64,000 nucleotides of DNA from a virus. Positions 34,795 through 61,888 of this stretch are shown in pieces. Position 1 is the stretch's first letter. Each line of letters begins with the position of its first letter. The notes beneath the pieces were generated by a model. The model was not told the origin of the DNA and made no database searches. It saw only the letters and a list, made by a program, of their open reading frames with translations. The translations under genes and the position numbers were made by a program. The DNA lies in IMG/VR virus record IMGVR_UViG_3300028833_000003; one strand, 5' to 3'.

Positions 34795-34892
34795 AAATTT
34801 TTTCAAAAAAGGATTGACAAACCCACCAGACCGTGTTATAATAGAGACACAAAAGGGAAAGGAAAATCCCCAACACCAGAAAGGAAACTACA

Positions 34893-35111
34893 ATGACGAA
34901 GATCTACACCGTGGCTGTGATGAACCGCTTTGAGAATGACCACACTGAAACCAAGTATTTCACCACCAAAGAAAAAGCCATCAAGTATGCGGAAAAGATC
35001 AACGCCAAATACGAAGAAGCAAGAGCTAACAAAAATTATTTCGAGATGGTCTATCATGTGGCGATGGACTGGGGCATCAAAGAGGTTATGGCCGATGAAG
35101 AAGAGGAATAA
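34893..35111 (+). CDS. hypothetical early protein (72 aa)
   Basis: Promoter -35 at 34814, AAAGGAAA RBS-like, ATG 34893. Confidence 0.7.
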   Translation: MTKIYTVAVMNRFENDHTETKYFTTKEKAIKYAEKINAKYEEARANKNYFEMVYHVAMDWGIKEVMADEEEE

Positions 35112-35404: not shown

Positions 35405-35650
35405 GCCTGCGTAATAGTCTTGTAATAATTTTGTAACAAATTCGTAACACTTTTGTAACAAAATTGTAATCCCGAAATTGTTACGAAAGTATTAAATTTT
35501 TATTACAAAAATTTAATACTTTTTTAATAATATTTAATAATTATAAGAAAAGAATAAAAAATCGTGGAAAAATGCGATTTAACATAATCTTAATACTTTT
35601 GTAACACTTTTGTAACAAAAAAAGTGATTTTGTAACACTTTTTTAACAAA
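35405..35650. repeat. iteron array 1: repeated (T/C)GTAA(C/T)A / TGTTAC motifs in AT-rich non-coding DNA
   Basis: At least 10 copies, e.g. TTTTGTAACA at 35429, 35451, 35596, 35607, 35627; shares a ~45-nt block (CCCGAAATTGTTACGAAAGTATTAAATTTTTATTACAAA) with 46586-46629. Confidence 0.8.
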
Positions 35651-35734
35651 AAACGCTTGACAAGTGCCCGTGTAGGGTGTATAATGAAGTCACAAAAGAG
35701 GTCAAGGACAGACCGAAAAACCAGAAGGGGCAAA

Positions 35735-36241
35735 ATGATGATGAACCGGAATTACAATCCCGCGTGCGCGATGAACAGCCTGTCTTATATGGTTACCAAA
35801 TACCACAAGCTCTCCGCGTCTCACATTTACTTCTTCGGTTTTGAGTTTAACGGCGCTGTTTATGCCTACACCAGCAAGAACCTGCCCCGTAAAGTCCTCC
35901 GCACTGAAAAGGCTTCCTCTAAGAACGGCGGTTTCCGGCAAGTCAAGTTCCGCCCCACTAAGTTCTGGAAGATGGACATGATCCTCTCCGGCAAAGCTAT
36001 CAAGGTCGCTGATATGGCCGACTTTATGGCTCTTGCTCCTAAGAACAAGGGTTGCAAGTTTGAAATGTGGGTAACTGAAACCTACACCAGCGAAAAGTGG
36101 GTCAAGGATAGCGTCCGGTTTGACAAGGCTGGCGATGTGGTCATCAACGGCGAAAACGTCCAGGTCAAGTTTGAAGGCGCCGAAGTCATCAACGAACGTT
36201 CTCTCCGCAATGCTTACTATGATGCGATGGGGCTGGCCTAA
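35735..36241 (+). CDS. hypothetical early protein (168 aa)
   Basis: Promoter -35 at 35657; ATG 35735 after a purine-rich leader (ORF-track start 35657 is the promoter itself); followed by a hairpin. Confidence 0.7.
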   Translation: MMMNRNYNPACAMNSLSYMVTKYHKLSASHIYFFGFEFNGAVYAYTSKNLPRKVLRTEKASSKNGGFRQVKFRPTKFWKMDMILSGKAIKVADMADFMALAPKNKGCKFEMWVTETYTSEKWVKDSVRFDKAGDVVINGENVQVKFEGAEVINERSLRNAYYDAMGLA

Positions 36242-36776: not shown

Positions 36777-37157
36777 AGCACTCCCAAACCCGGGCGCGAA
36801 AAAAAATTTTTAAAAACCTATTGACAAAATCGCAATCATGCCTTATAATAATAACTGTCAAGAGGACGAGGGCGCGTCCCTGAGAGAAAAAAATCTCTTC
36901 AAACCCTCTTGACAAACCCTCAAAAGTATGGTACAATGAACAAGACGAAAGGGGATGAGCCAAATGGTCTAAGCAAGCGTGGTGTGGGTGTGGGATGAGA
37001 AGCCCAACACAACAAGACCGCAAAAGTTCTCAAAAAAAGTTTCAAAAACCTCTTGACAAACCCAACCAACCATGATATAATAAAGATGTTCCAAGGGAAC
37101 AACAAAAACAAAAGGCAAGCGGATAAGCCCCACAAACCGCAGAAAGGAATTGATACT

Positions 37158-37532
37158 ATGACTACCACCATCACCAACATCTCTGCTCTGAACACTGCTA
37201 TCGAAACTCTGACCGCTGTCGAAGGTATGGAAGAGGTTGTAACCAAGCTGACCAACATCAAGGCTTCTTATGAGAAGCGTGCGTCTGCGGAGCGCAAGCC
37301 CACCAAGGCGCAGATTGCCAAGAAGGAAGAGAACGCCGCTTTTGCGGAGGAAGTCTTTGAAGCAATCAAGGAAACTCCTGCGACTGCCAAGGCTCTGGCT
37401 GAGCGGTTCGCTGTCACTCCGCAGAAGATGACTTCTGCTCTGGTCGCTCTGCGCAAGGCTGGGCGCATCAATGACAAGGAACAGGAAAAGAAGTCCTGGC
37501 CTCACATCTGGCAGGTGGCTGTGGGCGCGTAA
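37158..37532 (+). CDS. paralog family A member 1: helical N-terminus, basic KPTKAQ linker, winged-helix-like C-terminus (124 aa)
   Basis: ATG 37158 after AGAAAGGAATTGATACT leader; three stacked promoters upstream (36821, 36909, 37053); paralogous to 38452, 42897, 44509, 55953. Confidence 0.75.
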   Translation: MTTTITNISALNTAIETLTAVEGMEEVVTKLTNIKASYEKRASAERKPTKAQIAKKEENAAFAEEVFEAIKETPATAKALAERFAVTPQKMTSALVALRKAGRINDKEQEKKSWPHIWQVAVGA

Positions 37533-37621
37533 GCGCCCCAGCCCTGGGCCCGGGCGAAAAAACTTCTTGACAAATCAATAGCAACATGATATAATAATCA
37601 TGTTGAAAGGAGCTGAACCAA

Positions 37622-38095
37622 ATGAACGCTATTCCCTCTCTTGACATTGTAAAAGAACTTGAACCGCTGACCGCTGTAGTGCGCGAGTTCGTAAAGAGCT
37701 TTGATGAAGAGTATGATGCTGTGCTTGGCCCTGGCTTCATGGCTAACATGGACGAAGATGTAGTTGTCTATTCAATCGCAATGTCTGATGCTGGCGGGCA
37801 ATCCTTCCGCGACAACTTTGTAAAGCGCTTTCCTAAGTGCGATTGTCTTTCAACCTTTGCGCTGTCTCTGTTCCATGAGGTTGGACACCTTGAAACAGAA
37901 TGGGACATGGACGATGATGTGGAATTGCGCAACAGCGACAAGATGGACGATGAAACATACTATAATTTGCACAATGAGTGGATAGCTACACAATTCGCTG
38001 GTGAATGGGCCACTTCTCATTTGGAAAAAGCAAAACAATTTGATTTGAAATTCAATGAGGTTGCCCGCGCGATTATTGGCCGACTTTTGGATTGA
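37622..38095 (+). CDS. hypothetical protein with HExxH motif (157 aa), possible small zinc metallopeptidase
   Basis: Promoter -35 at 37567, AAGGAG RBS; LFHEVGHLE motif; followed by a canonical terminator. Confidence 0.6.
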   Translation: MNAIPSLDIVKELEPLTAVVREFVKSFDEEYDAVLGPGFMANMDEDVVVYSIAMSDAGGQSFRDNFVKRFPKCDCLSTFALSLFHEVGHLETEWDMDDDVELRNSDKMDDETYYNLHNEWIATQFAGEWATSHLEKAKQFDLKFNEVARAIIGRLLD

Positions 38096-38105
38096 AAATT
38101 GAAAC

Positions 38106-38127
38106 CGCCCTTTTGTAGGGCGTTTTT
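38106..38127 (+). terminator. intrinsic terminator
   Basis: CGCCC-TTTTGTA-GGGCG followed by T5, 10 nt after TGA 38095. Confidence 0.65.
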
Positions 38128-38451
38128 CATTTTCATTTTCCCATTGCCCTCGGCCGGGCCGCGCGCGGTCGCCCAGGCTGCGTGCGGGCCGCATTTGCGC
38201 ACCAACAGGCCCAACACAAAACCAAAACCAAAATCAGCGAGCGAAAAAAATTTTAAAAAAATCCTAAAAACCTATTGACAGGCACCCCATTTGGTGATAT
38301 ACTTATATTGTTCCTGAGGGGAACAGAAACGAAAAACCAAAAATGAAATTAAAAAAAATTTCAAAATGGTCTTGACAAACTGCTCACCCTCTGGTATAAT
38401 AAAAGAGAAGAAAGGGAAGGACACCCTACAAACCAGAAAGGAATTGATACC

Positions 38452-38817
38452 ATGACTAACAAAATGACTTACTCTGATGCCCTCCGCAACGCTATCGCCA
38501 CTGTCACTGATGAAGCTACCAAGTCCCGCCTTGAAGATTTGCTGGTTTCCATTGAAAAGCGTTCCAACTCTGAGCGCAAGCCCACCAAGGCCCAGCTGGA
38601 AAAGCAGGAAGAAAACAAGGCCCTGGCTGAGGTTGTGTTCAAGGTGCTGTCTGCTCACAGGGTTGAAGCTTCTGTCGCTGAGCTGAAAAAGCTGGACGAT
38701 CAGCTTGTCGATCTGTCCTCCCCTAAGCTGACCGCTGTGCTGAAAATCCTGATCGACCAGAACAAGGTTTCTAAGGATGACAGTGGAAGGGTTGCCAAGT
38801 ACATCGCCCTTGACTAA
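38452..38817 (+). CDS. paralog family A member 2 (121 aa)
   Basis: ATG 38452 after AGAAAGGAATTGATACC leader; two stacked promoters (38275, 38372); ERKPTKAQLEKQEENKALAE shared with members 1 and 4. Confidence 0.75.
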   Translation: MTNKMTYSDALRNAIATVTDEATKSRLEDLLVSIEKRSNSERKPTKAQLEKQEENKALAEVVFKVLSAHRVEASVAELKKLDDQLVDLSSPKLTAVLKILIDQNKVSKDDSGRVAKYIALD

Positions 38818-38945
38818 CAAACAGAGGGCAGGGGAAACCCTGCCCTCCTCCCGCCCCGGGCCGAGAACCTTAAAAAAACTATTGACAAGCTGACAATCCT
38901 GTGCTATAATCTTATTGAAATCAATACGAAAGAGATGATGACAAA

Positions 38946-39521
38946 ATGACAAGAGCAGAAATTATCGCCAATAATAATTTTGAAATCGCCAAAGAAAAAT
39001 TTGAAAATGCAAGTCTGAGATGGTCTAATTATTGGTGGGAAGCTTGCGAAAAAATTTATAATGCAAGTAAAGAATGGGCAGAAAAATATATTCTTGATCC
39101 AGTAAAGCGTATTATCAAAAGAATTAAAAGAGTTTTAGGTGGCATTGATTGGAATGGTTTTGAACCCTTCCCGCATGGAGTACAGCAATTTTATTTGATT
39201 AGATTATTAAATGCCGAAGGTGAAAATGTTTGGAATAAAATCGGCACTACATCTCGAGCAACATACATTCGCATGAAAGACCATCTAAAAAACGCTGACT
39301 ATCGTAAGCATGGAGTAAAAACTATTCAAATCATCGGCCTGTGGGATTGTAAAAATGTAGACGCTGAAATTATTGAAAATCGCGTGCGCAAATATTTACG
39401 CAAAGATTACGAACAGCAATTCGTCCCAAATGATCGTTTTGAAATAGAATTTGATATTCCCTCCCTGTCTAAAATGATAGAAGAGACAATTGCATTTGAA
39501 AATAGTTTTATGTATAATTAA
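38946..39521 (+). CDS. T5orf172/GIY-YIG-superfamily-like protein (191 aa) in an AT-rich island
   Basis: Promoter -35 at 38882; FYLIRLLNAEGENVWNKIGTTSRATYIRMKDH resembles the T5orf172 core (recall); markedly more AT-rich than neighbours. Confidence 0.55.
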   Translation: MTRAEIIANNNFEIAKEKFENASLRWSNYWWEACEKIYNASKEWAEKYILDPVKRIIKRIKRVLGGIDWNGFEPFPHGVQQFYLIRLLNAEGENVWNKIGTTSRATYIRMKDHLKNADYRKHGVKTIQIIGLWDCKNVDAEIIENRVRKYLRKDYEQQFVPNDRFEIEFDIPSLSKMIEETIAFENSFMYN

Positions 39522-39584
39522 AAAAGGGATTGACAAATCCCTTCCCATGTAGTATAATAATGGTGTTGAAAGGAGCTGATAAAC

Positions 39585-39734
39585 ATGGCGAACAAGAGCA
39601 AAAGCAAAGTCAAGAATAGCTATGAAATCAACAAAGGCATTCGGCGCGATTGGGGCAACATCAACCCTGTTACAAAAATCATACCAGACAAGCGCAACAA
39701 GAAACCTAAGCACAAAAAAAATTGGGAAGAGTGA
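39585..39734 (+). CDS. small very basic protein (49 aa, below ORF-track cutoff)
   Basis: Promoter -35 at 39530, AAGGAG RBS, ATG 39585, TGA 39732. Confidence 0.55.
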   Translation: MANKSKSKVKNSYEINKGIRRDWGNINPVTKIIPDKRNKKPKHKKNWEE

Positions 39735-39805
39735 TACACACCTATTGACAAATTTAAAAAAATGTGATATAATAATTATAGAAAATCAGAAAGGAAGTGT
39801 GCGTA

Positions 39806-40255
39806 ATGGCAAAGCAACAGCGGCAACCCACTCCACCTACCAGAGAATGGATTGATGAATGGATTGACAAGTATTTGGAAGAGCATCCAAATGAAATCAT
39901 TGAAGATTTCCAAGGGCTGGAAGATCAAGCTGACTATGAGTGGTGGTGCAAAGAGATTGACGCAGGACGCCCCACACCTTACGACTTGACCAAAGAGCAA
40001 GAAAAGGAAAGCCACAAAGCAAGAGTAACGCCTGGCGGAAGTGGCAAGCCCAAGGCAAACACTGAGCGCAAGCGCAAGCCCAATGACACAAAGAGAACCA
40101 TTATCGGCTGGGTTCAAACCTTGTTTGAAGGTTTCGCTCTTAATGACAAAGTGGCTAATGTGATTGTCTCCAATGTTGAAAGGTCAATAGATTTTGAAAT
40201 GGATGGCAAGCATTATACATTGAGCCTGACAGAGCATCGCCCACCTAAAAAGTGA
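39806..40255 (+). CDS. paralog family B member 1 (149 aa)
   Basis: Promoter -35 at 39745, AAGGAAG RBS, ATG 39806; shares ...YDLTKEQEKE...HRPPK with 45008..45436. Confidence 0.7.
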   Translation: MAKQQRQPTPPTREWIDEWIDKYLEEHPNEIIEDFQGLEDQADYEWWCKEIDAGRPTPYDLTKEQEKESHKARVTPGGSGKPKANTERKRKPNDTKRTIIGWVQTLFEGFALNDKVANVIVSNVERSIDFEMDGKHYTLSLTEHRPPKK

Positions 40256-40367
40256 GCGGTGCTTTTTTTCGGCCCGGGCCAAAAATTTTTTTCGCAAACC
40301 TATTGACAAACCTCTTTCAGAGTGCTATAATAACATTGTTCCAAGGGAACAGAAAGGAAGTAAAATT

Positions 40368-40604
40368 ATGAAACCTATCAAAATTGCTGGCACTGTCTTT
40401 GATGCTGATGCACTTTCTATTGAAGCAATTGATGCGTTAATTGAAAAACTTGAAGAAGCAAAATGCACACAACGCCGCAAAAAGGCAGAAGAATACGCAG
40501 AGAAAATTCATAACTTAATTATCGAAGCAAAACAGCAAGATTTAAATGTGATGATTGACAATGAATGGATCCCTGATGATTTCAGAGTTGATGTTTATAT
40601 CTGA
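40368..40604 (+). CDS. hypothetical early protein (78 aa)
   Basis: Promoter -35 at 40303, AAGGAAG RBS; first of a five-gene AT-richer operon. Confidence 0.7.
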   Translation: MKPIKIAGTVFDADALSIEAIDALIEKLEEAKCTQRRKKAEEYAEKIHNLIIEAKQQDLNVMIDNEWIPDDFRVDVYI

Positions 40605-40639
40605 TAATACAAATAAGCAATAGAAAGGAAATAAAAGCA

Positions 40640-40855
40640 ATGTATAAAACAACTTGGATGATCACTGATGAAAGTGATGAAGGCACATTCCAGACAGAGC
40701 TGACCTTGTATCATTTTGGCAAGCGTCCCAAGTTCCCTCGCTGGTACATGGGAGAAAATCATTCTTATCAGATTGAAATGATTTGGAATTTCCATCTGAT
40801 TGTTCGCCCTTCTATTTTCTTTAAATGCCTGACCCATCAATACATTATCAGATGA
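40640..40855 (+). CDS. hypothetical early protein (71 aa)
   Basis: AAAGGAAA RBS-like 8 nt upstream of ATG. Confidence 0.55.
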   Translation: MYKTTWMITDESDEGTFQTELTLYHFGKRPKFPRWYMGENHSYQIEMIWNFHLIVRPSIFFKCLTHQYIIR

Positions 40856-40870
40856 AAGGAAGTATCCACA

Positions 40871-41155
40871 ATGAGAGACGCGAAAAAAGGAACTTATAAT
40901 GATAGTTATACTTATTGCCCTGTTAATGCGTATGGAGATTGTCCTTACTGTGACCAAAGTGATGTATGCCACATCGATGATCCTCTCAAAGATTGCGATG
41001 ACTGGGGCGCGTTTTGGGAGAGCTGGGAAGACTGGCTAAACGCTGATGATGCAAACCCTGATGCACCAGAGGATTTTGCGGAAGATGAAATCCGCTGGGC
41101 TGGTGATGTGTATGGCTATGAAGATACAATGGAGGACAACAATGAATACTTATGA
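40871..41155 (+). CDS. acidic Cys-containing hypothetical protein (94 aa)
   Basis: AAGGAAG RBS; CPVNAYGDCPYCDQSDVCH. Confidence 0.65.
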   Translation: MRDAKKGTYNDSYTYCPVNAYGDCPYCDQSDVCHIDDPLKDCDDWGAFWESWEDWLNADDANPDAPEDFAEDEIRWAGDVYGYEDTMEDNNEYL

Positions 41156-41315
41156 AATCATGATTAATTATCTTAACTATGTATTTCCAAACAGAAAATT
41201 TAGTAAAGAATATTTAGACATCCTTTACGCTATCTTTATAAAGGGATATGGCGAAGGCGAACTCGCGGGAGAAATTGAAGCAAATAAATATTGGAGCGAA
41301 AGGAAAGAAAAATAA
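41142..41315 (+). CDS. hypothetical early protein (57 aa)
   Basis: ATG 41142 behind GGAGGA, overlaps the end of the previous gene; ORF-track start 41046 is unlikely. Confidence 0.55.
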   Translation: MNTYEIMINYLNYVFPNRKFSKEYLDILYAIFIKGYGEGELAGEIEANKYWSERKEK

Positions 41316-41319
41316 ATAA

Positions 41320-41535
41320 ATGTATAATTATAATAATGACCCATTTGCGAAGGGCACACAAAAATATCAACAAGAGATAGTCGCAAAAGCATTAAATGAC
41401 CATTTGCTCAAATGTGTTAAAAATAGTTATTGGTGCGCTCATTGCTCTCTAAATCATAGTGGCATCTGCTTTTTTGCAAAAGAATGTTTTGAGAATGATC
41501 GAAAATATTATAGAGAAGATGATGAGGAGGAATAA
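41320..41535 (+). CDS. hypothetical early protein (71 aa)
   Basis: Contiguous with the previous gene; ends before CCCGGG motif and next promoter. Confidence 0.6.
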   Translation: MYNYNNDPFAKGTQKYQQEIVAKALNDHLLKCVKNSYWCAHCSLNHSGICFFAKECFENDRKYYREDDEEE

Positions 41536-41633
41536 ACTTCTCATTTTGCCCGGGCCAAAAAATTTCAAAAAAGTATTGACAAGCTGAAACAAATGCTGTA
41601 TAATAGCTATGTAATCAAGAGGAGGTAATCAAG

Positions 41634-41786
41634 ATGAAGACTTTGAAGGTGCTGGCTGTGATTGGTTGCTTACTGACTATCTGGGGTCTGGTGTGGGGTA
41701 TCTTCATCAAAGATTTCATTTGGGGTGCGTTTGTTGGTCTGGCGCTAATAATGCCTTATCTGGTTTGGGGAGATGAGGAAGAATGA
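41634..41786 (+). CDS. small membrane protein (50 aa, below ORF-track cutoff)
   Basis: Promoter -35 at 41576, GAGGAGG RBS, ATG 41634; two hydrophobic helices. Confidence 0.6.
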   Translation: MKTLKVLAVIGCLLTIWGLVWGIFIKDFIWGAFVGLALIMPYLVWGDEEE

Positions 41787-41941
41787 AAAGAAGTCTTTAC
41801 AAGCGTTATGATGATTTAGCCTGCTGGGATTTGGACAAAGGATGTAGGCGCATCATTGACCAGTCTCGACCTGGTAGGCGTCGCCTGAAAAAGGTTCTTC
41901 GGCGTCAAGCGCGCAAGCGGTTAAATCAGCGGGAAGAATAA
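41783..41941 (+). CDS. small basic protein (52 aa, below ORF-track cutoff)
   Basis: ATG 41783 overlaps the previous TGA (ATGA); Arg/Lys-rich. Confidence 0.45.
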   Translation: MKRSLYKRYDDLACWDLDKGCRRIIDQSRPGRRRLKKVLRRQARKRLNQREE

Positions 41942-42031
41942 CCGCCCGGGCGAAAAAAATTTCTAAAAAGCTATTGACAACCTATCAAGATGGTGCTATA
42001 ATAAGCATGTAATCAAGAGGAGGTAATCAAA

Positions 42032-42547
42032 ATGACTAAGAACACTTACGAAGCTCGCGCCTATAAGTTCGCCACTTTCCTTGCTCGTCTGTTTGCTGGT
42101 TGCTCTTCTCTGGAAGATTTCATGTGGGCGCTGGACTATTACAACGCTACGCACTCTCGCAAACTGCGCTGGGCGCATGGTGTTTCTCGCATTGCGATTA
42201 TCCGCTCTGACTATGTTATCAAGTTTAACATGGTGCCTGATGAAGAATGGGAAGATGGTCGCGCTGGCAACTGCGAAAGCGAAGAAGCGGTCTATGAGCG
42301 CGCCTGCGAAGATGGCTTTGAGTATCTGCTGGCTAAAACCACTGTTTGCACCATCGAAGAACACACTTTCTCTATCATGCCTCGCATTAACCATGTGAAT
42401 GATTGGACACGCGACTGGACAGAGTATTGCACTGATGAAGAATATAACTGGCTGGTGCAAAATGTGAATGACTTGCATGAAGGTAATGTGGGATACAGAA
42501 ATCGAAAAGTGTGCGTAATCGACTACGCCTGGGACGCGGAAATGTAA
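42032..42547 (+). CDS. putative atypical protein kinase-fold protein (171 aa)
   Basis: Promoter -35 at 41974, GAGGAGG RBS; order VIKFN ... NCESEEAVY ... DLHEGNVG ... VIDYAWD matches Lys / alphaC-Glu / catalytic D-x4-N / metal-binding Asp of small kinases (by eye). Confidence 0.6.
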   Translation: MTKNTYEARAYKFATFLARLFAGCSSLEDFMWALDYYNATHSRKLRWAHGVSRIAIIRSDYVIKFNMVPDEEWEDGRAGNCESEEAVYERACEDGFEYLLAKTTVCTIEEHTFSIMPRINHVNDWTRDWTEYCTDEEYNWLVQNVNDLHEGNVGYRNRKVCVIDYAWDAEM

Positions 42548-42568
42548 TCCGCGCCCTTTTGCGTTCGA

Positions 42569-42595
42569 CCGCGCGCTGCCGGATGTGGCGCGCGG
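42569..42595 (+). terminator. GC-rich hairpin (GCGCGC-core class)
   Basis: 8-bp stem CCGCGCGC/GCGCGCGG, 11-nt loop, after 42032..42547. Confidence 0.5.
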
Positions 42596-42896
42596 CATTT
42601 GCCCCACAGCATACCCCACACAATTTTCGGCGCGAAAAAAAGTTCAAAAAAAACTTCAAAAAAATTCCTAAAACCTATTGACAAGACCAGCGAAAGCGAG
42701 TATAATAATAACTGTCAGGAGGGCAAGAGAACATCCTCTCCCCTGATGGCACTGGCAAGGACGCTCTGACAAGATGCGGAAACTTCAAAAAAAAGTTTGA
42801 AAAACCCCTTGACAAAGCGCTGAAAGTGTGATACAATAAGGATGTCAAATGAAGGGGAGCTGATAAACCCCACAAACAGAGAAAGAGGTAGATACC

Positions 42897-43280
42897 ATGA
42901 TGAACACCAAGATGACTAACAAGAGCGCTCTGTCCTTTGTCCTGACCAACTGCGAAGTGCCTGCGGATGTCAAGGAGCGTCTGGAAGCGATGCTGGCTTC
43001 CCTTGAAAAGCGTTCTGAGAACGCCAAGGGCAAGGAGCGCAAGCTGTCTCCCAAGCAGGAGCAGGAGCGCAAGGAGCGTGAGGAGTTCCGCTCCAAGGTG
43101 TATGAGACTATGTGTGAGAACCTGAACTTCGAATACACCTGCAAGGGTCTGGCTGACCTGTTCGCTGTCTCTTCTCCCAAGATGGCGAACGCTCTGACCA
43201 AGCTGGTTGAAGCTGGCAAGGTTGAGCGTCTGGTTTCCACCACCAACAAGTCCAAGGTGTGGTTCAAGGTGGTAGCGTAA
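42897..43280 (+). CDS. paralog family A member 3 (127 aa)
   Basis: ATG 42897 after AGAAAGAGGTAGATACC leader; two stacked promoters (42678, 42809). Confidence 0.75.
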   Translation: MMNTKMTNKSALSFVLTNCEVPADVKERLEAMLASLEKRSENAKGKERKLSPKQEQERKEREEFRSKVYETMCENLNFEYTCKGLADLFAVSSPKMANALTKLVEAGKVERLVSTTNKSKVWFKVVA

Positions 43281-43412
43281 GCTACCACCGCCCCACCTGG
43301 GGCGCGCCGGGGCCGAAAAAAAATTTTTAAAAACCTATTGACAAAGCTTTAAAACCGCTGTATAATAAACATGTTCCAAGTGAGAACAAAAGAAAGAAAG
43401 GATTTGATAACA

Positions 43413-44069
43413 ATGGCTTCTAAGTATAATGACATTTTTGGTGATACTGAGACGCTGGGTCCGCTGGATAGCCCCATCATTTACAATGGTTACATGCATT
43501 GCAGGGAAACAGATGAAGAAGTAAATGCACTGATTAATGAATATTTCTTCAACCTTGAAAAATTCGCCACAGCGTATTATGCAAACAAGCGTCCGCAATA
43601 TTTGGACGATTTGTGGGACAGCAAAATCTTTGCTGAAAATTTTTGGGACTTCCGCAAAAAAGTGCTTGCCATGCTCAACCCCAATAAAAAGAACAGATTT
43701 TTCGCTCACAATGCGAGATTTGATGTTATGGCATTGAATAACACTTGCAGAGCGTTAAGCGATGGAAAAGTGAAATATTTCTTCCCCTATGAAGTTGAAG
43801 TTTGTGATACTCTCAAAATGGCGCGTCAAGTTGTCGCAAAAATGCCCACCTACATCAAATACTGTCAAGAGAATGGATACATGACCAAGCACAAGACGCC
43901 CAGGGTTCGCCTGACCGCTGAAATTCTTTACAGATTTATTACAAAAGATGAAGAATTTAATGAAGAGCACAGAGGGAAAGAAGATGTTCTGATCGAAGAA
44001 AAAATTTATGACTACATCAAGAGACAGCATAAAAAGTGCAATCCTGCGCTCTACGCCCGCAAGGCATGA
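43413..44069 (+). CDS. DEDDh (DnaQ-like) 3'-5' exonuclease (218 aa)
   Basis: Promoter -35 at 43338; FGDTETLG (Exo I), FFAHNARFDVMAL (Exo II), EEHRGKEDVLIE (Exo III, H-x4-D). Confidence 0.7.
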   Translation: MASKYNDIFGDTETLGPLDSPIIYNGYMHCRETDEEVNALINEYFFNLEKFATAYYANKRPQYLDDLWDSKIFAENFWDFRKKVLAMLNPNKKNRFFAHNARFDVMALNNTCRALSDGKVKYFFPYEVEVCDTLKMARQVVAKMPTYIKYCQENGYMTKHKTPRVRLTAEILYRFITKDEEFNEEHRGKEDVLIEEKIYDYIKRQHKKCNPALYARKA

Positions 44070-44508
44070 GCGCAGGCGGCCCGGGCCGAAAATTGTATAC
44101 AAAAAAAATTTCAAAAACCTATTGACAAGAACCTGAATCAGCAGTATAATATAAGTGTCCCAAGGGGCAAGGGACAGTCAAGGCCAGGTTGCCGAAAGTC
44201 AACAGAGACAATACGCATGGACTACAGAAACATTTGGCCATTAGCAAACACAATGTGCGAAAAAAGTTTGCGAAACCCCTTGACAAAGCCCACAACCTGT
44301 GGTATAATGCAAATGTAAGATAAAGGAAAGGGGAAAAATAAAAAGCCACCCCAATCCCAATGCGCAAAAATGCAAGGCTTTGCTTCCATGTGCTTCTTAC
44401 AAAGTCAAGAAATAAAAAATAAAAAAAGTTCTTGACAAACACCACAAAGCATGATATAATAAAGATGTTCCAAGAGAACAAAAGGAAAAAAAGAAAGAGG
44501 TAATGAAA

Positions 44509-44898
44509 ATGACTAACATCACCAAGAACATGAAGTACGCTGACATCCTCTCCATCCTGCATGGCGAAAATCCTGCCTATGGTTGCTCCATCGAAACTCT
44601 GACCGCTTTCATCGAACATGAAATGGAACTGACCGCGAAAAAGAACGCGGCTCCCAAGAAGCCTTCCAAGGCTCAGGTGGAGAAGCAGGAGGAGAACAAG
44701 GTTCTCGCTCAGACGCTGTTTGAAGTCCTCGCGGCTCATGGTAAGGATGTAAGCGTCGCGGAAATCAAGAAACTGGATGATCGCTTTGTGGATCTGTCCT
44801 CTCCCAAAATCACTGCGCTGTTGAAAATCCTGATGGATGAAAACCGCATGGTCAAAGATGATAGCGGAAGGGTGGCAAGGTATCAGGTTCTCGCCTGA
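44509..44898 (+). CDS. paralog family A member 4 (129 aa)
   Basis: ATG 44509 8 nt after AAAGAGG (in-frame ATG 44503 too close to RBS); three stacked promoters (44122, 44280, 44432); closest to member 2. Confidence 0.75.
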   Translation: MTNITKNMKYADILSILHGENPAYGCSIETLTAFIEHEMELTAKKNAAPKKPSKAQVEKQEENKVLAQTLFEVLAAHGKDVSVAEIKKLDDRFVDLSSPKITALLKILMDENRMVKDDSGRVARYQVLA

Positions 44899-46539: not shown

Positions 46540-46790
46540 ATTTTTACGCAAATTTTACGATTTTGTTACAATTCTGTTAATTTTCCCGAAACTTTTGTTA
46601 CAAAAGTATTAAATTTTTGTTACAAATTATTAAATTTTTATTAAATTTTTGTAATAATTGTAATAATTTTGTAATATTTTAAATTGTTACGAAAGTATTG
46701 CGAAATTGTTACAGATTTATTACGAAATTGTTACAAAACTTAACAAAATCGTAACATTTTTGTAACATTTGACCCACTTTTGTAAAAATT
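46540..46790. repeat. iteron array 2: TGTTAC(A/G) / (T/C)GTAA(C/T)A motifs, second copy of the array at 35.4 kb
   Basis: At least 13 copies in both orientations (e.g. TGTTACA at 46565, 46596, 46618, 46707, 46729; TGTAATA x3 at 46650-46676; GTAACA at 46751, 46763). Confidence 0.8.
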
Positions 46791-53074: not shown

Positions 53075-53192
53075 TTTATTTGGCCGGTGAAAATCCGGCC
53101 TATTTTTTTATGCAAAAATGAATCATCTATTTGAAAATTTTAAAAAAATATTATATAATATATATGTAAGATAAATAAAGGAGATGTGGCAA

Positions 53193-54995
53193 ATGAGCGT
53201 TTATGAAATCTTTAATGCTTATCGTATGCGTTACGCGACTGGTTCTGAAAATTGTGAGTGTTCTCCTGACGAAGTGTCTGAGGAAGTATTGCTGCAACCC
53301 TGGCGCAAAGCTAAGGGCGAATATCTGATGCAGTTGTTCGGGGATCAGCTTATCCTGGAACGTCCTTTCACCTATCGTCGTGGTGAGGACGAACTGCGCA
53401 ATGATATGTCTAATTTCCTTGATCGCAACATTGCCATGTCTTTCCGCAAGATGATGTGGTCTAAGGTTTGTGACCTGCTTGGTATTGAAAGCCGGCAGTG
53501 GTATTGGAATGATGGAGTTCTCTTTGGTGATGTAGAGGACCTTCCCAAAGAGTCTCAGGAGCGCGCTAAGCGTTATAAGGTGGCGCTGGCGCTTGAAAAT
53601 GCGTTCAGCTTTGATTCTCTGATGGAGAACCATATCGGTGTGGATAAGGCAGTCTCTTGCAAACTGGATGATGGTCGGCGTATTTCCATTGGTTTGAATG
53701 AAAAGCCTATGCGCGTTATCGGTAAGTTTGTTAAGCTGTTCCCTGACGATACTGACATGAAGGAACAATTTGATAAGTATTGTGTTATGCACTCTCAGGT
53801 GCTGAACCAGAAGACGCTGAAAGGCACCATCTGTCTGTCTATTCATCCTCTGGACTATGCTACCGCTTCTGACAATGCGAATGGCTGGTCTAGCTGTATG
53901 TCTTGGCAGGAGCAGGGATGCTATCGTATTGGTACTGTCGAAATGATGAATAGTCCTATGGTTATTTGCTGCTATGTCAAGAGCGATAATAACATGCTGG
54001 ATTGGAATTACGCGAATAAGCATTATGTTTGGAATAGCAAAAAGTGGCGCGCTTGGGCTATTCTGGATATTCATCAGTGCCTGATTAATAAGCAGTATCC
54101 TTATGACAATGATGATTTGGCCACTTTCTGCCTGAACTGGATTCGTGAGCTGGCGGCTGAAAAGCTGGGCTGGACTTTTGATGCTCCTAAGCTTATCTAT
54201 GGTGAAAATCCTTCTCATCATGGCGGTCGTGAGATTGATGGCGGTTATACTCTTGTGTATGACATGAATAAAATGTATAACGACATCAACATCAATGGTG
54301 AAGGTAATCTTTGCTGTCTGCGGCATAATTATGCTAAGCTGTGGAAAATGCCTCAGCGCGTTCATATTAACGTGAGTGGCGTAGATCAGTGCATGTGTTG
54401 CGGCAAGGTGTCTAACTGGGACGACCAGACCGAAGGTTCTCTGTTTGGCACTTGCTGCGATGCTGAAAATGGTTGCCATTGCGCTCGGTGCGGTGATTAC
54501 GTCAATGAAGATGACATCTATTATGGTCCTGATGATGTCGCTTATTGCCAGGATTGCTATAATGATATATTCGGTCATTGCGAAATTTGCGACAGTGATG
54601 TTGAGCGCGAATATATGAATGATGTAACTGTTCATATCCCCGAGGATATGATTAAGGAAGGTCTTGAAAAGATTAACGCCATGCCGGAAGTTGATGGATA
54701 TTTCGACCTGAGCGATTGGCAGATTACCGATTATAGCCTGCGCAGCTTCTCTGTGTGCGACCAGTGCTGTAAGGATTATCATTGGAGAATTGTGCATGAC
54801 CCTCGTCTCAATGGTCATCAGTTCTTTGGCGATTTTATTGATACTACGAACAAGCAGATGGATGAAATTGATATTAGCATGTTACTGAGACATTGCGACC
54901 TGCCTGGCACTCATTATAACTTCCGTTTCAACCACTCCACTCGCGAAAAGATGCAGGCTGTGTGGATGGACCTGTGGGATAAATACATGAAGTAA
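53193..54995 (+). CDS. large Cys-rich protein of unknown function (600 aa), paralog of 58174..59511
   Basis: Class II promoter at 53131, AAGGAG RBS, ATG 53193. Shares core SIHPLDY-x8-W-SCM and NSKKWRAW with the paralog, then multiple CxxC pairs. Followed by a terminator hairpin. Confidence 0.8.
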   Translation: MSVYEIFNAYRMRYATGSENCECSPDEVSEEVLLQPWRKAKGEYLMQLFGDQLILERPFTYRRGEDELRNDMSNFLDRNIAMSFRKMMWSKVCDLLGIESRQWYWNDGVLFGDVEDLPKESQERAKRYKVALALENAFSFDSLMENHIGVDKAVSCKLDDGRRISIGLNEKPMRVIGKFVKLFPDDTDMKEQFDKYCVMHSQVLNQKTLKGTICLSIHPLDYATASDNANGWSSCMSWQEQGCYRIGTVEMMNSPMVICCYVKSDNNMLDWNYANKHYVWNSKKWRAWAILDIHQCLINKQYPYDNDDLATFCLNWIRELAAEKLGWTFDAPKLIYGENPSHHGGREIDGGYTLVYDMNKMYNDININGEGNLCCLRHNYAKLWKMPQRVHINVSGVDQCMCCGKVSNWDDQTEGSLFGTCCDAENGCHCARCGDYVNEDDIYYGPDDVAYCQDCYNDIFGHCEICDSDVEREYMNDVTVHIPEDMIKEGLEKINAMPEVDGYFDLSDWQITDYSLRSFSVCDQCCKDYHWRIVHDPRLNGHQFFGDFIDTTNKQMDEIDISMLLRHCDLPGTHYNFRFNHSTREKMQAVWMDLWDKYMK

Positions 54996-55091
54996 TATAA
55001 CTATCCTCACTCTACAACAAGAGTGAGGATTTTTTATTTGAAAATTTTAAAATATTTTGATATAATATATATAGAAAGTGAGGGGTGATGA

Positions 55092-55331
55092 ATGATGTTT
55101 GTAAGTTTTGAAGATGTTTTTAACGCTGAAAAACAAGAGATGTTAGCTAATAAAATTCATGAACGTGCCATTAAGGAGCATTGGTGCTGCACGTGTCGTC
55201 ATTGTAAATGCGAACATGATGGTGATTGGTGCGAATTCCGTAACACTGTTGCTGATGGCCCTTGCTTATTTTATGAACTTGAACCAAGTCATTGGACTAT
55301 ATATATTACAGAAGGAGGCAACGATAAATGA
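55092..55331 (+). CDS. Cys-rich small protein (79 aa)
   Basis: Class II promoter at 55038; HWCCTCRHCKCEHDGDWC. Confidence 0.7.
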   Translation: MMFVSFEDVFNAEKQEMLANKIHERAIKEHWCCTCRHCKCEHDGDWCEFRNTVADGPCLFYELEPSHWTIYITEGGNDK

Positions 55332-55579
55332 AAAGTCAAAGATGGTATGAAGATAATCCTGAACCGTATTATGAAAAATTTAGAGTTATTGACCAAGAGC
55401 TGGCTAATTTACGTATTGAAAATGAATTACTGCGGTATCAAAATATACGGCTGCGTGACCAGCTCTCTGCCTTTCAAGCCAGATATGGCCCATTGACATT
55501 GGATGATGATACCAGTGGTCCGCCCGAAGGACATGAGCGCCACGATACTGGCGTCTGGACGCCTGCTAACAAATGGTAA
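55328..55579 (+). CDS. hypothetical coiled-coil protein (83 aa)
   Basis: GAAGGAGG RBS, ATGA overlap. Confidence 0.65.
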   Translation: MKSQRWYEDNPEPYYEKFRVIDQELANLRIENELLRYQNIRLRDQLSAFQARYGPLTLDDDTSGPPEGHERHDTGVWTPANKW

Positions 55580-55645
55580 GCACAAACTTGAAAATTTTAA
55601 AAAAATTTGATATAATATATATGTAAGATGAAGGGAGGCAATCGA

Positions 55646-55879
55646 GTGCGTGATGTAGATTATGGCATAATCGACAAGGATGAGTTAATGCGATTACTAA
55701 TCGACTTGCAAGAAGGACTAATTGAAGAACGGCGCATGCGTGATAAAATGTGTGAGCTATATGAGCGACAATTAAAAATTCAAGACGCTGAAATTAAACG
55801 GTTGCAATCTGAATTAGCCTTAGCTCATGAAAAAACAAAAACATCTTTTATAAAACGACCGGCTCCCTTGAGAAAATAA
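55646..55879 (+). CDS. hypothetical coiled-coil protein (77 aa)
   Basis: Class II promoter at 55588; GTG 55646 7 nt after GGGAGG (ORF-track ATG 55628 precedes the RBS). Confidence 0.55.
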   Translation: MRDVDYGIIDKDELMRLLIDLQEGLIEERRMRDKMCELYERQLKIQDAEIKRLQSELALAHEKTKTSFIKRPAPLRK

Positions 55880-55952
55880 AAAAAATTTGATATAATATAT
55901 ATGTAAGGTAAGGAAAGAAATCCTACCAAATAAAGAAAGGAAGTAATTCACA

Positions 55953-56342
55953 ATGACGAAGCGCGAAATGTTTGAGAAGGCTATTGCTATCCTGTCCAAC
56001 GACAATGCCAATGACGAAGTTGTTGCTATGATGCAGCATGAGATTGAGATGCTCGATAAGCGTGCGGAGAGTGCGAAGGCTGGTTCCGAGAAGCGGAAGG
56101 CAAAGCGTGCGGAAACTTCTGACACCATCCGGAACTCTGTGTATGATGCCGTAGCCAATGCGGGTGCGCCGGTTGATGTATTCGCGATTGTTGGTGCGAT
56201 GGATAACGCTCTTACTAAGGGCCAGGTAGTTGCTTATCTGACTCAGCTGGTGCGGGATGGTCGTATCACTCGTGATGCCATCAAGTATAAGGATGCTGAT
56301 GGTCATACCAAGAACGGCTCCGTATACTCTGTCGTAGCGTAA
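55953..56342 (+). CDS. paralog family A member 5 (129 aa), diverged
   Basis: Class II-type promoter at 55868; same architecture (helical N-terminus, basic KRKAKRAE linker, winged-helix-like C-terminus ...LTQLVRDGRITRD...). Confidence 0.7.
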   Translation: MTKREMFEKAIAILSNDNANDEVVAMMQHEIEMLDKRAESAKAGSEKRKAKRAETSDTIRNSVYDAVANAGAPVDVFAIVGAMDNALTKGQVVAYLTQLVRDGRITRDAIKYKDADGHTKNGSVYSVVA

Positions 56343-56401
56343 TAAGAGTGTAAGCGATGGGGAGCGATGTGTTGTCGCTCCCCATTTTTAGGAGTGATTT
56401 A

Positions 56402-57220
56402 ATGAAATATATAATAAATAAACAATGTAGTATGCCATATAAACGTAATGATAATTGCGGTGGGATTGAGTATTATTGGCGTGATTTAAAAGATGCGCTG
56501 GAAGATAATGTCAATCTCAATGGCGAAAAAAATATTTATTTAATGTTTCCATCTGATTATGATTTCTCAGATATAGATGAAATCTTAAACACAATGGAAC
56601 GGTTGCCTAATTCTTGGTTTTTGCTGCCTTCAATTGAAGCTATTAATGTTGTAGTAACTGCCGCAAAAGCAAAAGGCATTGAACCTCGGTGCGGTTTCCG
56701 TTATATGATTACAACTTGGAAATTGTTTTTGCGAGCACAGCAAGCTGGCGCCACATATTTCTTATTTGGTGAGCCCCTCACATTTATGATGCGCCGGCTA
56801 CATGAAGTTAAAAAGGATAATTACATTTATTCTATGATACCATGTGCGTGTGATGAATCTCATTATATCAAAGACATTTGTCAATTCTGGGTATTGCCGC
56901 AGCATATGTATCTTTATGAAGGCTTCATAGATTATGCGGTAATTCCTTTTACGACGCTTAATCAAACTCAGACTGTAATTGATAGTTATTGGTCTGATAA
57001 AGATTATGTTTATCCTTTGTATTTGTTAATTTATAATATGGAATCGAAATATAAATTGCCAGCTAATTGGTTCACAGATAAATTTGCAAAGCTGCGTTTG
57101 GATTGTGAGCAAGAGTGTATAGTTGGTAATCCAAGATGTCATTATTGCGAACGAGAGTGCCACTGGTGGGACTTTGTAAGGGAGAATAGAAATGACTTCA
57201 AAATGGTTAAAACTGTATAA
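56402..57220 (+). CDS. hypothetical protein with Cys-rich C-terminus (272 aa)
   Basis: ATG 56402 after AGGAG; C-terminus DCEQECIVGNPRCHYCERECHWW. Confidence 0.7.
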   Translation: MKYIINKQCSMPYKRNDNCGGIEYYWRDLKDALEDNVNLNGEKNIYLMFPSDYDFSDIDEILNTMERLPNSWFLLPSIEAINVVVTAAKAKGIEPRCGFRYMITTWKLFLRAQQAGATYFLFGEPLTFMMRRLHEVKKDNYIYSMIPCACDESHYIKDICQFWVLPQHMYLYEGFIDYAVIPFTTLNQTQTVIDSYWSDKDYVYPLYLLIYNMESKYKLPANWFTDKFAKLRLDCEQECIVGNPRCHYCERECHWWDFVRENRNDFKMVKTV

Positions 57221-58226
57221 AAATCTTTGTGGCATGAATCAAGTTCAAACTCGTCAATTTATGGCGCAGTTTCTACGACATCAAGATTACAAAAATGTCA
57301 CATTGACAAATAACTATGTGTATGCGGAAGGTGATATTCCTATCGCGCTAGTTGCACATAGTGACACTGTGTTTAAAACTTTGCCAAGAGAGATTTTTCA
57401 TGACCAAGAGAAGAATGTCATTTGGAGCCCAGAAGGCATGGGCGCTGATGATAAAGCTGGTATTCTAATGATGATTGCGATTATTAAGAAGTATGATTTA
57501 AAACCGCATATCATTGTTACTGCTAACGAAGAAATTGGATGTCTTGGTGCATCGAGCCTGGTAAAGAAAGTTCCGAATTGTCCGTTTGCTGAATGTAAGT
57601 ATCTCATTCAGTTAGATCGTAGAGGAGCAGATGACTGCGTATTTTATGATTTAGATGATATTGAGTTTGAAAAGTATATAGAGTCATTTGGTTTTAAAAC
57701 TCAATGGGGTAGTTTTAGTGATATTTCTACTATTGCTCCTGCTTGGGGTATTGGTGCGGTAAATCTCTCTGTTGGGTATGAGGATGAACATAGTTATCAA
57801 GAGCGGTTGTATGTAAATTGGTGGCAGGCCACGCTTGAAAAAGTTGTAAAGATGTTAAATGATGCTGGTAATACTTGCCAGTGGGGCTATACTGAACGAG
57901 CCTATTCTTATCATTATAGCGGCTATCCTTATGGTTGCAACGATTGGGAAGATACTTGTGATTGTTGCCATAACCCCACTCCTTATGCAGATATGCTGCC
58001 AGTATATACAAAAGATAATCCTACTTATGGTATGGATATTTGTCCAGACTGCTTTGCAAAAATTTGTTTGGAAATGTCCTGGTGTAGCAAATGTAATAAA
58101 GGCTGGTATGGTTTTGGCCAACAGCCAAAAAATTGGGTGTGCCCAACTTGCGCTGGAAAGGAAGTAAATACCAATGCAGCAACTAAACTCAATAAAAGAC
58201 CTTCAAAAGATACATATAAGTTTTAA
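57192..58226 (+). CDS. clan MH (M20/M28/M42-like) metallopeptidase-fold protein with C-terminal zinc-ribbon tail (344 aa)
   Basis: AAGGGAG RBS; ordered motifs LVAHSDTV, GMGADDKAGILMM, TANEEIGCLGA, LIQLDRRG, GYEDEHS; then CDCCH...CPDC...CSKC...CPTC. Confidence 0.65.
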   Translation: MTSKWLKLYKNLCGMNQVQTRQFMAQFLRHQDYKNVTLTNNYVYAEGDIPIALVAHSDTVFKTLPREIFHDQEKNVIWSPEGMGADDKAGILMMIAIIKKYDLKPHIIVTANEEIGCLGASSLVKKVPNCPFAECKYLIQLDRRGADDCVFYDLDDIEFEKYIESFGFKTQWGSFSDISTIAPAWGIGAVNLSVGYEDEHSYQERLYVNWWQATLEKVVKMLNDAGNTCQWGYTERAYSYHYSGYPYGCNDWEDTCDCCHNPTPYADMLPVYTKDNPTYGMDICPDCFAKICLEMSWCSKCNKGWYGFGQQPKNWVCPTCAGKEVNTNAATKLNKRPSKDTYKF

Positions 58227-59511: not shown

Positions 59512-59567
59512 TTTTTTTAAAAATATATGATATACTATATATAGAAAATAAGAGGAGGATTTGAGCT

Positions 59568-60606: not shown

Positions 60607-60672
60607 TCCTTATAGTTGAAAATTTAAAAAAAATTTGATATAATATATATGTAAGATGAAGGGAGGAAGTAA

Positions 60673-60828: not shown

Positions 60829-60906
60829 TACCAAAGGCGGGTAAATAAATTGGGGCCAATATTCCGCCACCCCTGAATATATTTAATGGCAAAGGAGGCA
60901 AAAAGT

Positions 60907-61258: not shown

Positions 61259-61289
61259 AAAATTTTTGATATAATATATATGTAAGGTT

Positions 61290-61531: not shown

Positions 61532-61534
61532 CCA

Positions 61535-61885: not shown

Positions 61886-61888
61886 TAT

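Follow-up and report, generated by a model that had tools for sequence, protein, structure and literature searches.

As Dunn and Studier reportedly described in 1983, bacteriophage T7 carries the tandem early promoters A1, A2 and A3 upstream of gene 0.3. The T7 early leader is removed by RNase III, so its short leader RNAs are by-products, and in phage phi29 promoter A1 drives a 174-nt prohead RNA, a single, conserved and separately terminated species of known fold. Here, we analysed a 64,000-nt stretch of viral DNA (IMG/VR record IMGVR_UViG_3300028833_000003; hereafter the window), in which four stacks of tandem consensus promoters, with leaders that contain no credible open reading frame (ORF), precede the four early members of a family of five paralogous genes (family A). 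Like T7 A1-A3, the stacks consist of two or three strong promoters of the host-polymerase type, roughly 90-160 nt apart, which head early genes and have no gene between them. However, T7 has one stack per genome, whereas the window has four, each tied to a paralogue of one family, and this arrangement recurs across a clade. Furthermore, the stacks differ from T7 in having a conserved hairpin before the ribosome-binding site (RBS) and 5′ arms with complementarity to the next -35 box, while no long duplex of the RNase III type is evident. The phi29 case is similar in that an ORF-less RNA would be made from a strong early promoter that is followed by others, which makes it a precedent for small-RNA production, but the units described here have no terminators and are not conserved across distant relatives.

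Parallels are also found in Firmicutes. The Bacillus subtilis hbs gene encodes a small abundant DNA-binding protein and has two promoters (P3 and P1) approximately 210 and 180 nt upstream of the ORF; hairpins in its highly structured 5′ untranslated region (UTR) protect the 5′ end of each transcript, the RBS blocks RNase J1, and long-range pairing modulates processing (PMC5737220). The stacks share with hbs a small DNA-binding protein (predicted here), two tandem promoters, a long ORF-less leader and 5′-end hairpins. However, there is no sequence relationship, and the hbs pairing joins the 5′ and 3′ UTRs, whereas here it would join the 5′ end and the next -35 region. In Firmicutes/Bacilli, occlusion of the 5′ end or an RBS without a start codon suffices to stabilise long mRNAs (PMC3997798). 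Judged from their sequence alone, the leaders contain elements like those of such stabilisers (the STAB-SD of cryIIIA, the aprE 5′ stem-loop and the ermC stalled ribosome), namely predicted 5′ stems and/or RBS-like tracts without a start codon (GAAAGGGGA within 36944-37052 and AAAGGAAAGGGGA within 44315-44437); the difference is that several elements are concatenated here, one per promoter. The host-takeover module of phage SPO1 consists of small early genes with promoters and RBSs typical of very highly expressed genes (PMC6873191). The window likewise has clustered small early genes with promoters and RBSs of this type, suited to the host polymerase, but searches of the GenBank phage collection found no similarity at the DNA or protein level. 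To our knowledge, descriptions of SPO1 do not list stacked promoters with structured spacers among its hallmarks, and pairing of a transcript's 5′ end with the RNA copy of the next -35 box has not been described as a way of nesting promoters in RNA structure. Systems of this general kind, in which tandem early promoters are combined with 5′ leaders that stabilise or regulate, are known; new here are the tight clade-wide link to one predicted winged-helix family, the AAGGA-loop hairpin motif and the -35 boxes nested in leader stems. We favour, with a probability of roughly 0.55, the reading that tandem promoters, together with interchangeable 5′ leaders that stay attached to the mRNA and act as stabilisers and in translational control, provide high early expression of family A.

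The window has a G+C content of 38.5% and, between 31.7 and 46.1 kb, carries 35 plus-strand matches (11-12 of 12 positions) to TTGACA-N17-TATAAT, with almost none on the minus strand. These class I sites mostly have a TG extension and A/T-rich tracts upstream, and 25 perfect 12/12 sites lie in this 14-kb region compared to approximately 0.001 expected by chance (14,000 x 4^-12), which confirms the observation far beyond chance. The initial annotation had placed 3, 2, 2 and 3 class I promoters before genes 37158, 38452, 42897 and 44509 (named by start position), and all ten were found where it had put them, on the plus strand and with 17-nt spacers. Stack 1 comprises P1 at 36821-36849 (TTGACA-17-TATAAT, 12/12), P2 at 36909-36937 (TACAAT, 11/12) and P3 at 37053-37081 (12/12); stack 2, P1 at 38275-38303 (TATACT, 11/12) and P2 at 38372-38400 (12/12); stack 3, P1 at 42678-42706 (12/12) and P2 at 42809-42837 (TACAAT, 11/12); and stack 4, which precedes a gene starting at 44503 or 44509, P1 at 44122-44150, P2 at 44280-44308 and P3 at 44432-44460 (all 12/12). 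Each range begins with the -35 box; seven promoters match at 12/12 and three at 11/12. The stack promoters are co-oriented and have UP-like A/T tracts upstream. A terminator scan found no terminator-like site on the plus strand inside any of the four stacks, and each unit continues into an A-rich UP region and then the next promoter. An ORF scan found no credible ORF in the four stacks, as had been claimed for the segments between promoters: ATG ORFs are at most 44 aa, cross promoter elements and lack a properly spaced RBS, the lone exception being a two-codon ORF (MV*) at 36964. A divergent minus-strand promoter using the inverted TTGAC was considered and rejected, there being no -10 box at the right spacing. 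In the mechanism that we propose, the early region would be transcribed by RNA polymerase carrying the host primary sigma factor, two or three consensus promoters in tandem would form the cassette that drives each early family A copy, and the gene-free stretches would be transcribed leader modules that remain on the mRNA rather than separate genes.

The four early family A genes lie on the plus strand at 37158-37532 (124 aa), 38452-38817 (121 aa), 42897-43280 (127 aa) and 44509-44898 (129 aa; alternative start 44503). They are paralogues with 25-51% identity, and tblastn finds these four. The fifth paralogue reported by the initial annotation was recovered by a family profile (E = 1.6e-14) at 55954-56339 on the plus strand (region 55868-56339), where a single promoter of a second class (class II, described below) makes it an unstacked comparison copy. 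The AlphaFold2 model of the gene 38452 protein (pLDDT 84) has an N-terminal helical hairpin and a C-terminal winged helix, and its best PDB matches in Foldseek are ArsR/SmtB, BlaI/MecI and CopR repressors; Pfam and PHROGs searches with family A gave only sub-threshold winged-helix or helix-turn-helix hints. Family A is therefore best described as predicted small winged-helix DNA-binding proteins, a class that can be required in bulk. Within the window, stacks precede 4/4 early family A genes but 0/25 other class I units (Fisher p = 4e-5). In 80 related loci (relatives are cited below by L numbers), stacks precede 57 of the 93 family A genes compared to 47 of the 422 others after de-duplication of genes (odds ratio 12.6). 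The non-family-A genes behind stacks in relatives mostly encode small early proteins too. One such family has approximately 125-147 aa and starts M..DI(I/L)ARL.NGEDAQ, and others are lysine-rich proteins of 78-82 aa (MANKKMKKVNPKD..., MAKKTTKKVDVKK...); the loci with other stack-driven families are L007, L013, L015, L025, L049 and L056, and L026, L038 and L048.

The 21-mer that closes the family A leader (AAACCAGAAAGGRWTTGATAC, the 3′ end of the 38407-38451 leader) has exact matches in 53 IMG/VR stretches, where it is almost always followed by a family A homologue (shared ...KKPTxxQ... motif) and where, in most loci, two to four consensus promoters are located upstream within 160-600 nt. The viral contigs that bear it reach approximately 400 kb and are mostly 90-200 kb. 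In addition, it occurs in nine contigs of metagenome-assembled genomes (MAGs), six of which are titled Eubacteriales, Lachnospiraceae, Christensenella or Clostridia. On the strength of these IMG/VR and MAG matches, we therefore regard the window as the early region of a large uncultivated phage clade. The MAG titles indicate that the hosts are probably gut Clostridia; the phage is probably about 100-200 kb in size, and the window probably its early, host-takeover-like region. Megablast and tblastn of the region, a 603-aa protein and family A against 50,697 GenBank phage records gave no match, and Pfam searches with ten large ORFs did not reveal the phage type.

The strongest feature, which the initial annotation had missed, is a covarying hairpin in the final leader, between the last promoter and the gene. 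The leader consists of a 3-5 bp stem with the loop AAGGA(A/C)A(A), an A/C-rich linker, the RBS AGAAAGGAA and TTGATAC(C/T)ATG. The AAGGA(A/C)A sequence lies approximately 20 nt 5′ of the RBS and stands in the loop of a 3-5 bp stem in 30/30 leaders. The stems vary yet always pair (GGG/CCC, GTG/CAC, AGG/CCT, GAC/GTC, GAG/CTC, AAC/GTT, GGA/TCC and GTC/GAC). When the leaders were aligned manually with the loop as the register, each of the inner three pairs was found in every distinct sequence (25/25), double changes numbered 12, 5 and 1, and the covariation score is 0.551 compared to 0.142 for shuffled alignments (0/500 reach the observed value) and at most 0.178 for slid partners. On this comparative evidence, the final-leader hairpin is a genuine conserved RNA hairpin; Rfam has no family resembling it. 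It constitutes a well-supported new cis-regulatory RNA motif and, since more than 50 viral contigs have family A genes marked by it, a covariance model for annotation is possible.

In the window, the canonical hairpin lies before 38452, in the final leader of stack 2 (38407-38451), as AGGG-AAGGACA-CCCT (38413-38427), followed by the RBS AGAAAGGAA (38435-38443), TTGATACC and ATG. It is modified in the final leader of stack 1 (37088-37157), which has a 5′ hairpin GTTCC-AAG-GGAAC (37088-37100) and a hairpin GGC-AAGCGGATAA-GCC, then AGAAAGGAATTGATACTATG, and in that of stack 3 (42844-42896), with a hairpin GGGG-AGCTGATAAA-CCCC, then AGAAAGAGGTAGATACCATG. The final leader of stack 4 (44467-44508) has a 5′ hairpin GTTC-CAAGA-GAAC (44467-44479) and the RBS AAGAGG, with single-stranded AAGGAAAAA in place of the AAGGA hairpin. 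The initial annotation had described a shared end AGAAAG...GATAC(C/T)ATG for all four final leaders; three have it (37140, 38435 and 42877), whereas the leader before 44509 reads AGAAAGAGGTAATGAAAATG and lacks GATAC. The AAGGA hairpin also precedes the fifth family A gene, the tRNA region (63181) and genes 34893 and 35737. The last two (34893-35111 and 35737-36241) are outside family A and have single promoters, with the same hairpin and a CCAGAA(A/G)GG leader at 34843-34892 and 35687-35736. What the hairpin marks is therefore a small regulon that extends beyond family A.

A published definition of targets of the RNA-binding protein CsrA requires a GGA in a short hairpin loop and a second GGA overlapping the RBS, within reach of one dimer; in the B. 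subtilis hag leader the upstream GGA lies at -39..-37 (PMC7652899, PMC13443453). In the 38452 leader, the loop GGA is at -33..-31 and the second, in the RBS, at -12..-10 from the ATG, so that the leader resembles hag in having one GGA in the loop of a short (3-5 bp) hairpin and one in the RBS. This geometry fits the CsrA-target definition as a resemblance and not as a demonstration: the loop here has 7-8 nt, whereas in vitro-selected loops mostly have 6 nt, and CsrA binding is putative. A role in ribosome standby, as a STAB-SD, or as the operator of a phage protein fits the AAGGA hairpin equally well. In the mechanism that we propose, the last module would combine the AAGGA(A/C)A loop with the true RBS AGAAAGGAA, and translation and stability would be set at these two sites by a ribosome or by an RNA-binding protein, for which host CsrA and a phage protein are candidates.

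The modules upstream of the final leaders would give each transcript its own protected 5′ end, in one of three forms. In the first, a local hairpin would form at the 5′ terminus. The three hairpins that had been reported all exist, although two of them lie elsewhere than proposed: TGTTCC/GGAACA was located as annotated at 38309 (38309-38325), while GGACG/CGTCC spans 36864-36879 rather than starting at 36852, and TGTCCC/GGGACA spans 44156-44176 rather than starting at 44154. The stack 2 first module (38310-38371) has TGTTCC-TGAGG-GGAACA as its local 5′ hairpin, and the stack 4 first module (44157-44285) has TGTCCC/GGGACA. The predicted stems of units 36856, 38310, 44157, 44315, 37088 and 44467 begin 5-7 nt past the -10 box, relative to which their start sites are predicted. 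In the second form, the first ~10 nt would pair with the transcribed -35 box and flank of the next promoter, closing the module into a compact domain. In the stack 1 first module (36856-36914), the arm TGTCAAGAGG (36856-36865) forms a perfect 10-bp stem with CCTCTTGACA (36905-36914), which is the P2 flank and -35 box. This stem encloses the GGACG/CGTCC hairpin and the A-rich UP region, and the fold has a minimum free energy (MFE) of -24.4 kcal/mol (z = -3.3). In the stack 3 first module (42713-42814), the arm TGTCAGGAGGG can pair with CCCCTTGACA (42805-42814) in a 10-bp stem with one bulged A, or alternatively locally with CCTCTCCCCTGA. Two further internal -35 boxes, both in stack 4, have upstream partners that are not at the 5′ terminus: GTCAAGG (44177-44183) of the first module pairs with CCTTGAC in the P2 -35 region (44177/44278). 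In the second module (44315-44437; MFE -30.1 kcal/mol, z = -3.8), the 5′-terminal GUAAGA itself pairs with UCUUAC ~85 nt downstream (44315-44400), and GTCAAGAA (44404-44411) pairs with TTCTTGAC (44429-44436) in the P3 -35 region. In the third form, an RBS-like purine tract without a gene would serve as a ribosome parking site; RBS-like leader tracts not used for a gene are GAAAGGGGA at 36948 in the stack 1 second module (U1b; 36944-37052), whose fold is not significant (z = +0.48), AAAGGAAAGGGGA at 44322 in the stack 4 second module, where no start codon follows, and the AAGGA loops. Two leaders had also been said to begin with the same TATAATAATAACTGTCA(A/G)GAGG, and this start is indeed present, at 36844 and 42701.

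The complementarity to the next promoter recurs among relatives. Many first modules start with [TA]GTCA[AG]G(A/G)GG, the reverse complement of the next flank and -35 box (CCYCTTGACA). The arm being complementary to the next promoter, formation of the stem therefore requires read-through into that promoter. This start motif is present in 44 of 610 de-duplicated promoter pairs, 30 of which are stacked (p = 2e-6). In 32/34 such units, [TA]GTCA[AG] begins 5-6 nt past the -10 box, where transcription would be expected to start, and in 31/34 the MFE fold contains the stem that closes on the next -35 region (mean z = -4.3), although the units themselves vary in length (59-243 nt) and content. Furthermore, complementarity extends into the partner's own flank by a mean of 3.14 nt, compared to 1.26 nt for random promoter flanks (reached in 2/2000 within-class permutations), with matched arm variants GAGG/CCTC, GGGG/CCCC, GAAG/CTTC and GAGGGAA/TTCCCTC. 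By a statistic that is independent of how this TGTCA(A/G)G class is defined, the base 5′ of TTGACA (-37) is C, which extends the stem, in 6/6 internal promoters compared to 5/29 others in the window (p = 3e-4). In some relatives, the first modules also contain internal structure: a T-loop-like hairpin GGGUUCAAAUCCC (L036 7286-7419 and L040 2818-2955) and, in another subfamily, GCUAC-GGUUGGAA-GUAGC corresponding by compensatory changes to GCGGC-GGUUGGAA-GUCGC (L001 9550, L015 826 and L025, minus strand, 2434). These sequences hint that some first modules are more than spacers.

Conservation was assessed in seven ENA/Logan contigs (L059-L065) that are 89-96% identical to the window over long collinear blocks. 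The spacers 36938-37042 (U1b), 42707-42798 (U3a), 44151-44269 (U4a) and 44309-44421 (U4b) are 97.6, 100, 98.3 and 97.1% identical, respectively; the stack 3 first module is identical (100%) in L060. Three of the four final leaders are 98-100% identical (37088-37157: 100%), while the leader before 44509 is 82.6% identical. With family A coding regions 1-4 at 98.3, 83.2, 91.9 and 90.1%, most cores (97-100%) are more conserved than three of the four adjacent family A genes, and substitutions are concentrated in the promoter spacers. In contrast to this constancy, some first modules have been exchanged: 36850-36898 is replaced in L061 with both arms and an internal hairpin kept (the closing stem is also kept in L059), 38304-38361 has a 14-nt deletion in L059, and in L080, whose family A protein is 84% identical, 38304-38361 is replaced by a module of the TGTCAAGAGG type. 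The swapped first modules always keep a 5′ structure. In 58 distant IMG/VR loci, no homologues of the unit cores were found, blastn-short matching UP tracts, RBSs and the final leader only. A search for closer relatives to extend the covariation gave two distant loci from a metagenome scan and none from an IMG/VR scan with the 38452 protein.

The spacers are constrained within a lineage and interchangeable between lineages, and generic cis-acting structural or stability modules therefore fit better than trans-acting RNAs with fixed targets. The initial annotation had offered two explanations, tandem promoters that maximise family A expression or upstream units that make short regulatory RNAs. 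The co-oriented consensus sites, UP-like tracts, absence of terminators and clade-wide recurrence favour the former; the latter is unsupported as stated. We consider it unlikely that the units are released as discrete stable small RNAs, by RNase cleavage at or beside the closing stem, and act in trans, for instance by titrating ribosomes, CsrA or RNA polymerase or by pairing with RNAs of the host. Processing could release the units, each of which has its own consensus promoter; many fold closed with paired 5′ and 3′ ends, as many stable RNAs do (z -3.3 to -6.5), and the conserved cores, the compensatory or T-loop-like GGGUUCAAAUCCC hairpins of some relatives and the GGA or RBS-like tracts in several units would suit such a role. 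However, no unit has a terminator, the closing stem requires transcription into the next promoter, and distant relatives keep the promoters and the final leader but have no core homologues. In addition, first units are swapped between close relatives, a behaviour atypical of a trans-acting RNA with a fixed target. Rfam searches of the window stacks and 15 related loci, at gathering and permissive thresholds (E up to 1-5), gave nothing credible, and ARAGORN on the loci with T-loop-like unit hairpins called no tRNA or tmRNA in those units. A variant, which we regard as quite improbable, is that excised closed-stem modules and AAGGA-loop leaders, made in very large quantity from about ten consensus promoters, are decoys that retune the early host machinery, with targets such as CsrA, ribosomes or region 4 of the RNA polymerase sigma factor, the terminal helix being an RNA copy of the -35 element. 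If this were true, the phage would possess a family of promoter-embedded regulatory RNAs without an Rfam counterpart.

The same comparisons bear on whether the stacks have any selected function. Promoter cassettes in one stack have paralogues in others (~80% identity over 70-100 nt), and duplication has therefore occurred. It is nevertheless very improbable that the stacks merely record neutral duplication of cassettes in a region rich in promoters, as they are strongly associated with one gene family across a wide clade, are conserved above three of the four adjacent family A genes, show structural covariation and carry a specific base at -37 in the internal promoters.

Several points weigh against the preferred reading of mRNA-attached stabilising leaders. 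It relies throughout on predictions, for start sites as well as for read-through and stability. The 5′ end could be protected equally well by a local hairpin, and the preferred reading gives no reason for the -35 box as the partner. Purely structural protection does not explain the high conservation of unstructured cores such as U1b, whose fold has a z of +0.48 and which is 97.6% identical. Covariation of the long-range stem is modest and comes mainly from one pair (AU 16, GC 6, GU 2, UA 1), and slid controls give similar scores. G-U pairs and A-C mismatches number 10 and 7, which is no proof of selection at the RNA over the DNA level. The block-wise high identity could also come in part from recent recombination in mosaic phage genomes. 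The idea that every internal -35 box is sequestered was rejected: an upstream partner of at least 7 bp exists for only 4/6 internal promoters of the window, and across relatives it occurs in 38% of stacked units and 28% of solo promoters compared to 18% of shuffles. Sequestration is therefore only partly true, and we restrict the pairing claim to the TGTCA(A/G)G class.

The G-U versus A-C count equally suits a function at the DNA level, in which the stacks would be arrays that capture polymerase, or the inverted repeats (TGTCAAG...CTTGACA) and flanking motifs would serve family A or some other regulator as operators for the control of its own promoters, and the transcribed spacers would be unimportant. 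The -35 boxes do take part in inverted repeats, family A is predicted to be of the winged-helix type and resembles autoregulating repressors, the outermost stack promoter in relatives lies within operator-like repeat arrays (TTGTAACA or TTGCACAAA...TTTGTGCA), and GCCCGGGC palindromes lie upstream of many early promoters. However, the distance between the repeat arms ranges from 17 to ~220 nt and is incompatible with a fixed dimer site, the promoter spacers, which are the obvious place for operators, are least conserved while the transcribed cores are most conserved, and the final-leader hairpin shows the Watson-Crick covariation and invariant loop typical of RNA. We therefore hold a DNA-level function to be rather doubtful.

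The U1b module also has the layout of a translated leader, with GAAAGGGGA placed 8 nt before the ATG of the MV* ORF (36964-36972). In some relatives, the second module has a good RBS and a mini-ORF with a proline-rich end (MTSNARPPP*, MISDARPPP*, MTSNVRPPP*, MYSNKARDRP* and MPNAPPT*; L010 2242-2445, L012 91-294, L049 on the minus strand and L024 9541-9643); these are candidate ribosome-stalling leader peptides. The well-placed RBSs and proline-ending mini-ORFs of these relatives would agree with control of downstream expression by translation of, or stalling on, tiny spacer-encoded peptides. However, mini-ORFs occur in few lineages, the window has just the two-codon version, and the window stacks contain no alternative terminator/antiterminator structures. 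As a general explanation of the stacks, leader peptides are thus highly unlikely.

Under the favoured arrangement of tandem promoters and mRNA-attached leaders, all promoters would fire, transcripts would read through the downstream promoters, and the leader structures would stabilise the mRNA or regulate its translation. The net effect would be strong, summed transcription into a long-lived, well-translated mRNA and an early burst of family A protein. If confirmed, the cassette shows that the extreme early expression of a large group of uncultivated gut phages is assembled from interchangeable components, namely a consensus promoter, an UP tract, a 5′-protective RNA module and a hairpin-plus-RBS leader, and the cassettes would be ready-made strong expression modules for synthetic biology in Clostridia. 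The finding overturns no current model.

Further elements surround the stacks. The sequences at 38096-38264 and 42548-42667, directly upstream of stacks 2 and 3, each comprise a terminator-like hairpin, then a long GC-rich hairpin, with ATTTGC at its end, and a tract rich in A and C, and are 98% conserved in close relatives. In the more distant relatives L005, L038, L042 and L048, an equivalent GC hairpin lies immediately 3′ of a consensus promoter and may therefore be transcribed. TTGTAACA repeats number 17 in the window compared to 3.2 expected and cluster at 35431-35637 (plus strand), directly upstream of promoter 35657, and at 46564-46767 (mostly minus strand); these two oppositely oriented clusters flank the 35.6-46.5 kb block that contains all four stacks. 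The palindrome GCCCGGGC has seven copies (37548, 40272, 41548, 41944, 44079, 44917 and 45443) compared to 0.25 expected, confined to 37.5-45.5 kb; each copy closely follows the end of a gene and closely precedes a class I promoter's A-tract. From its sequence and placement, it could be a protein-binding site or a component of 3′-end hairpins.

Class II promoters (TTGAAA-ATTTTAAAAAAATTTGA-TATAAT-ATATATGTAAGAT) occur in at least eight copies at 53131-63093, with the spacer and initial transcribed sequence nearly invariant, which suggests a separate temporal class. The initial transcribed sequence of the stack promoter at 44280, GCAAATGTAAGATAAAGG, is similar to that of class II. In the region covered by 63065-63400 and 63600-63700, class II and class I promoters are stacked 87 nt apart and followed by a leader with a AAGGAAAA-loop hairpin. 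After this leader comes a gene-free stretch with the T-arm-like sequences GGGGTTCGAATCCCC and GGGTTCGACTCCCGG, for which neither ARAGORN nor Rfam called a tRNA; all these elements lie upstream of genes for tRNA-Glu and tRNA-Met, and the tRNA cluster at 61-64 kb provides the sole Rfam matches in the window that reach the gathering score.

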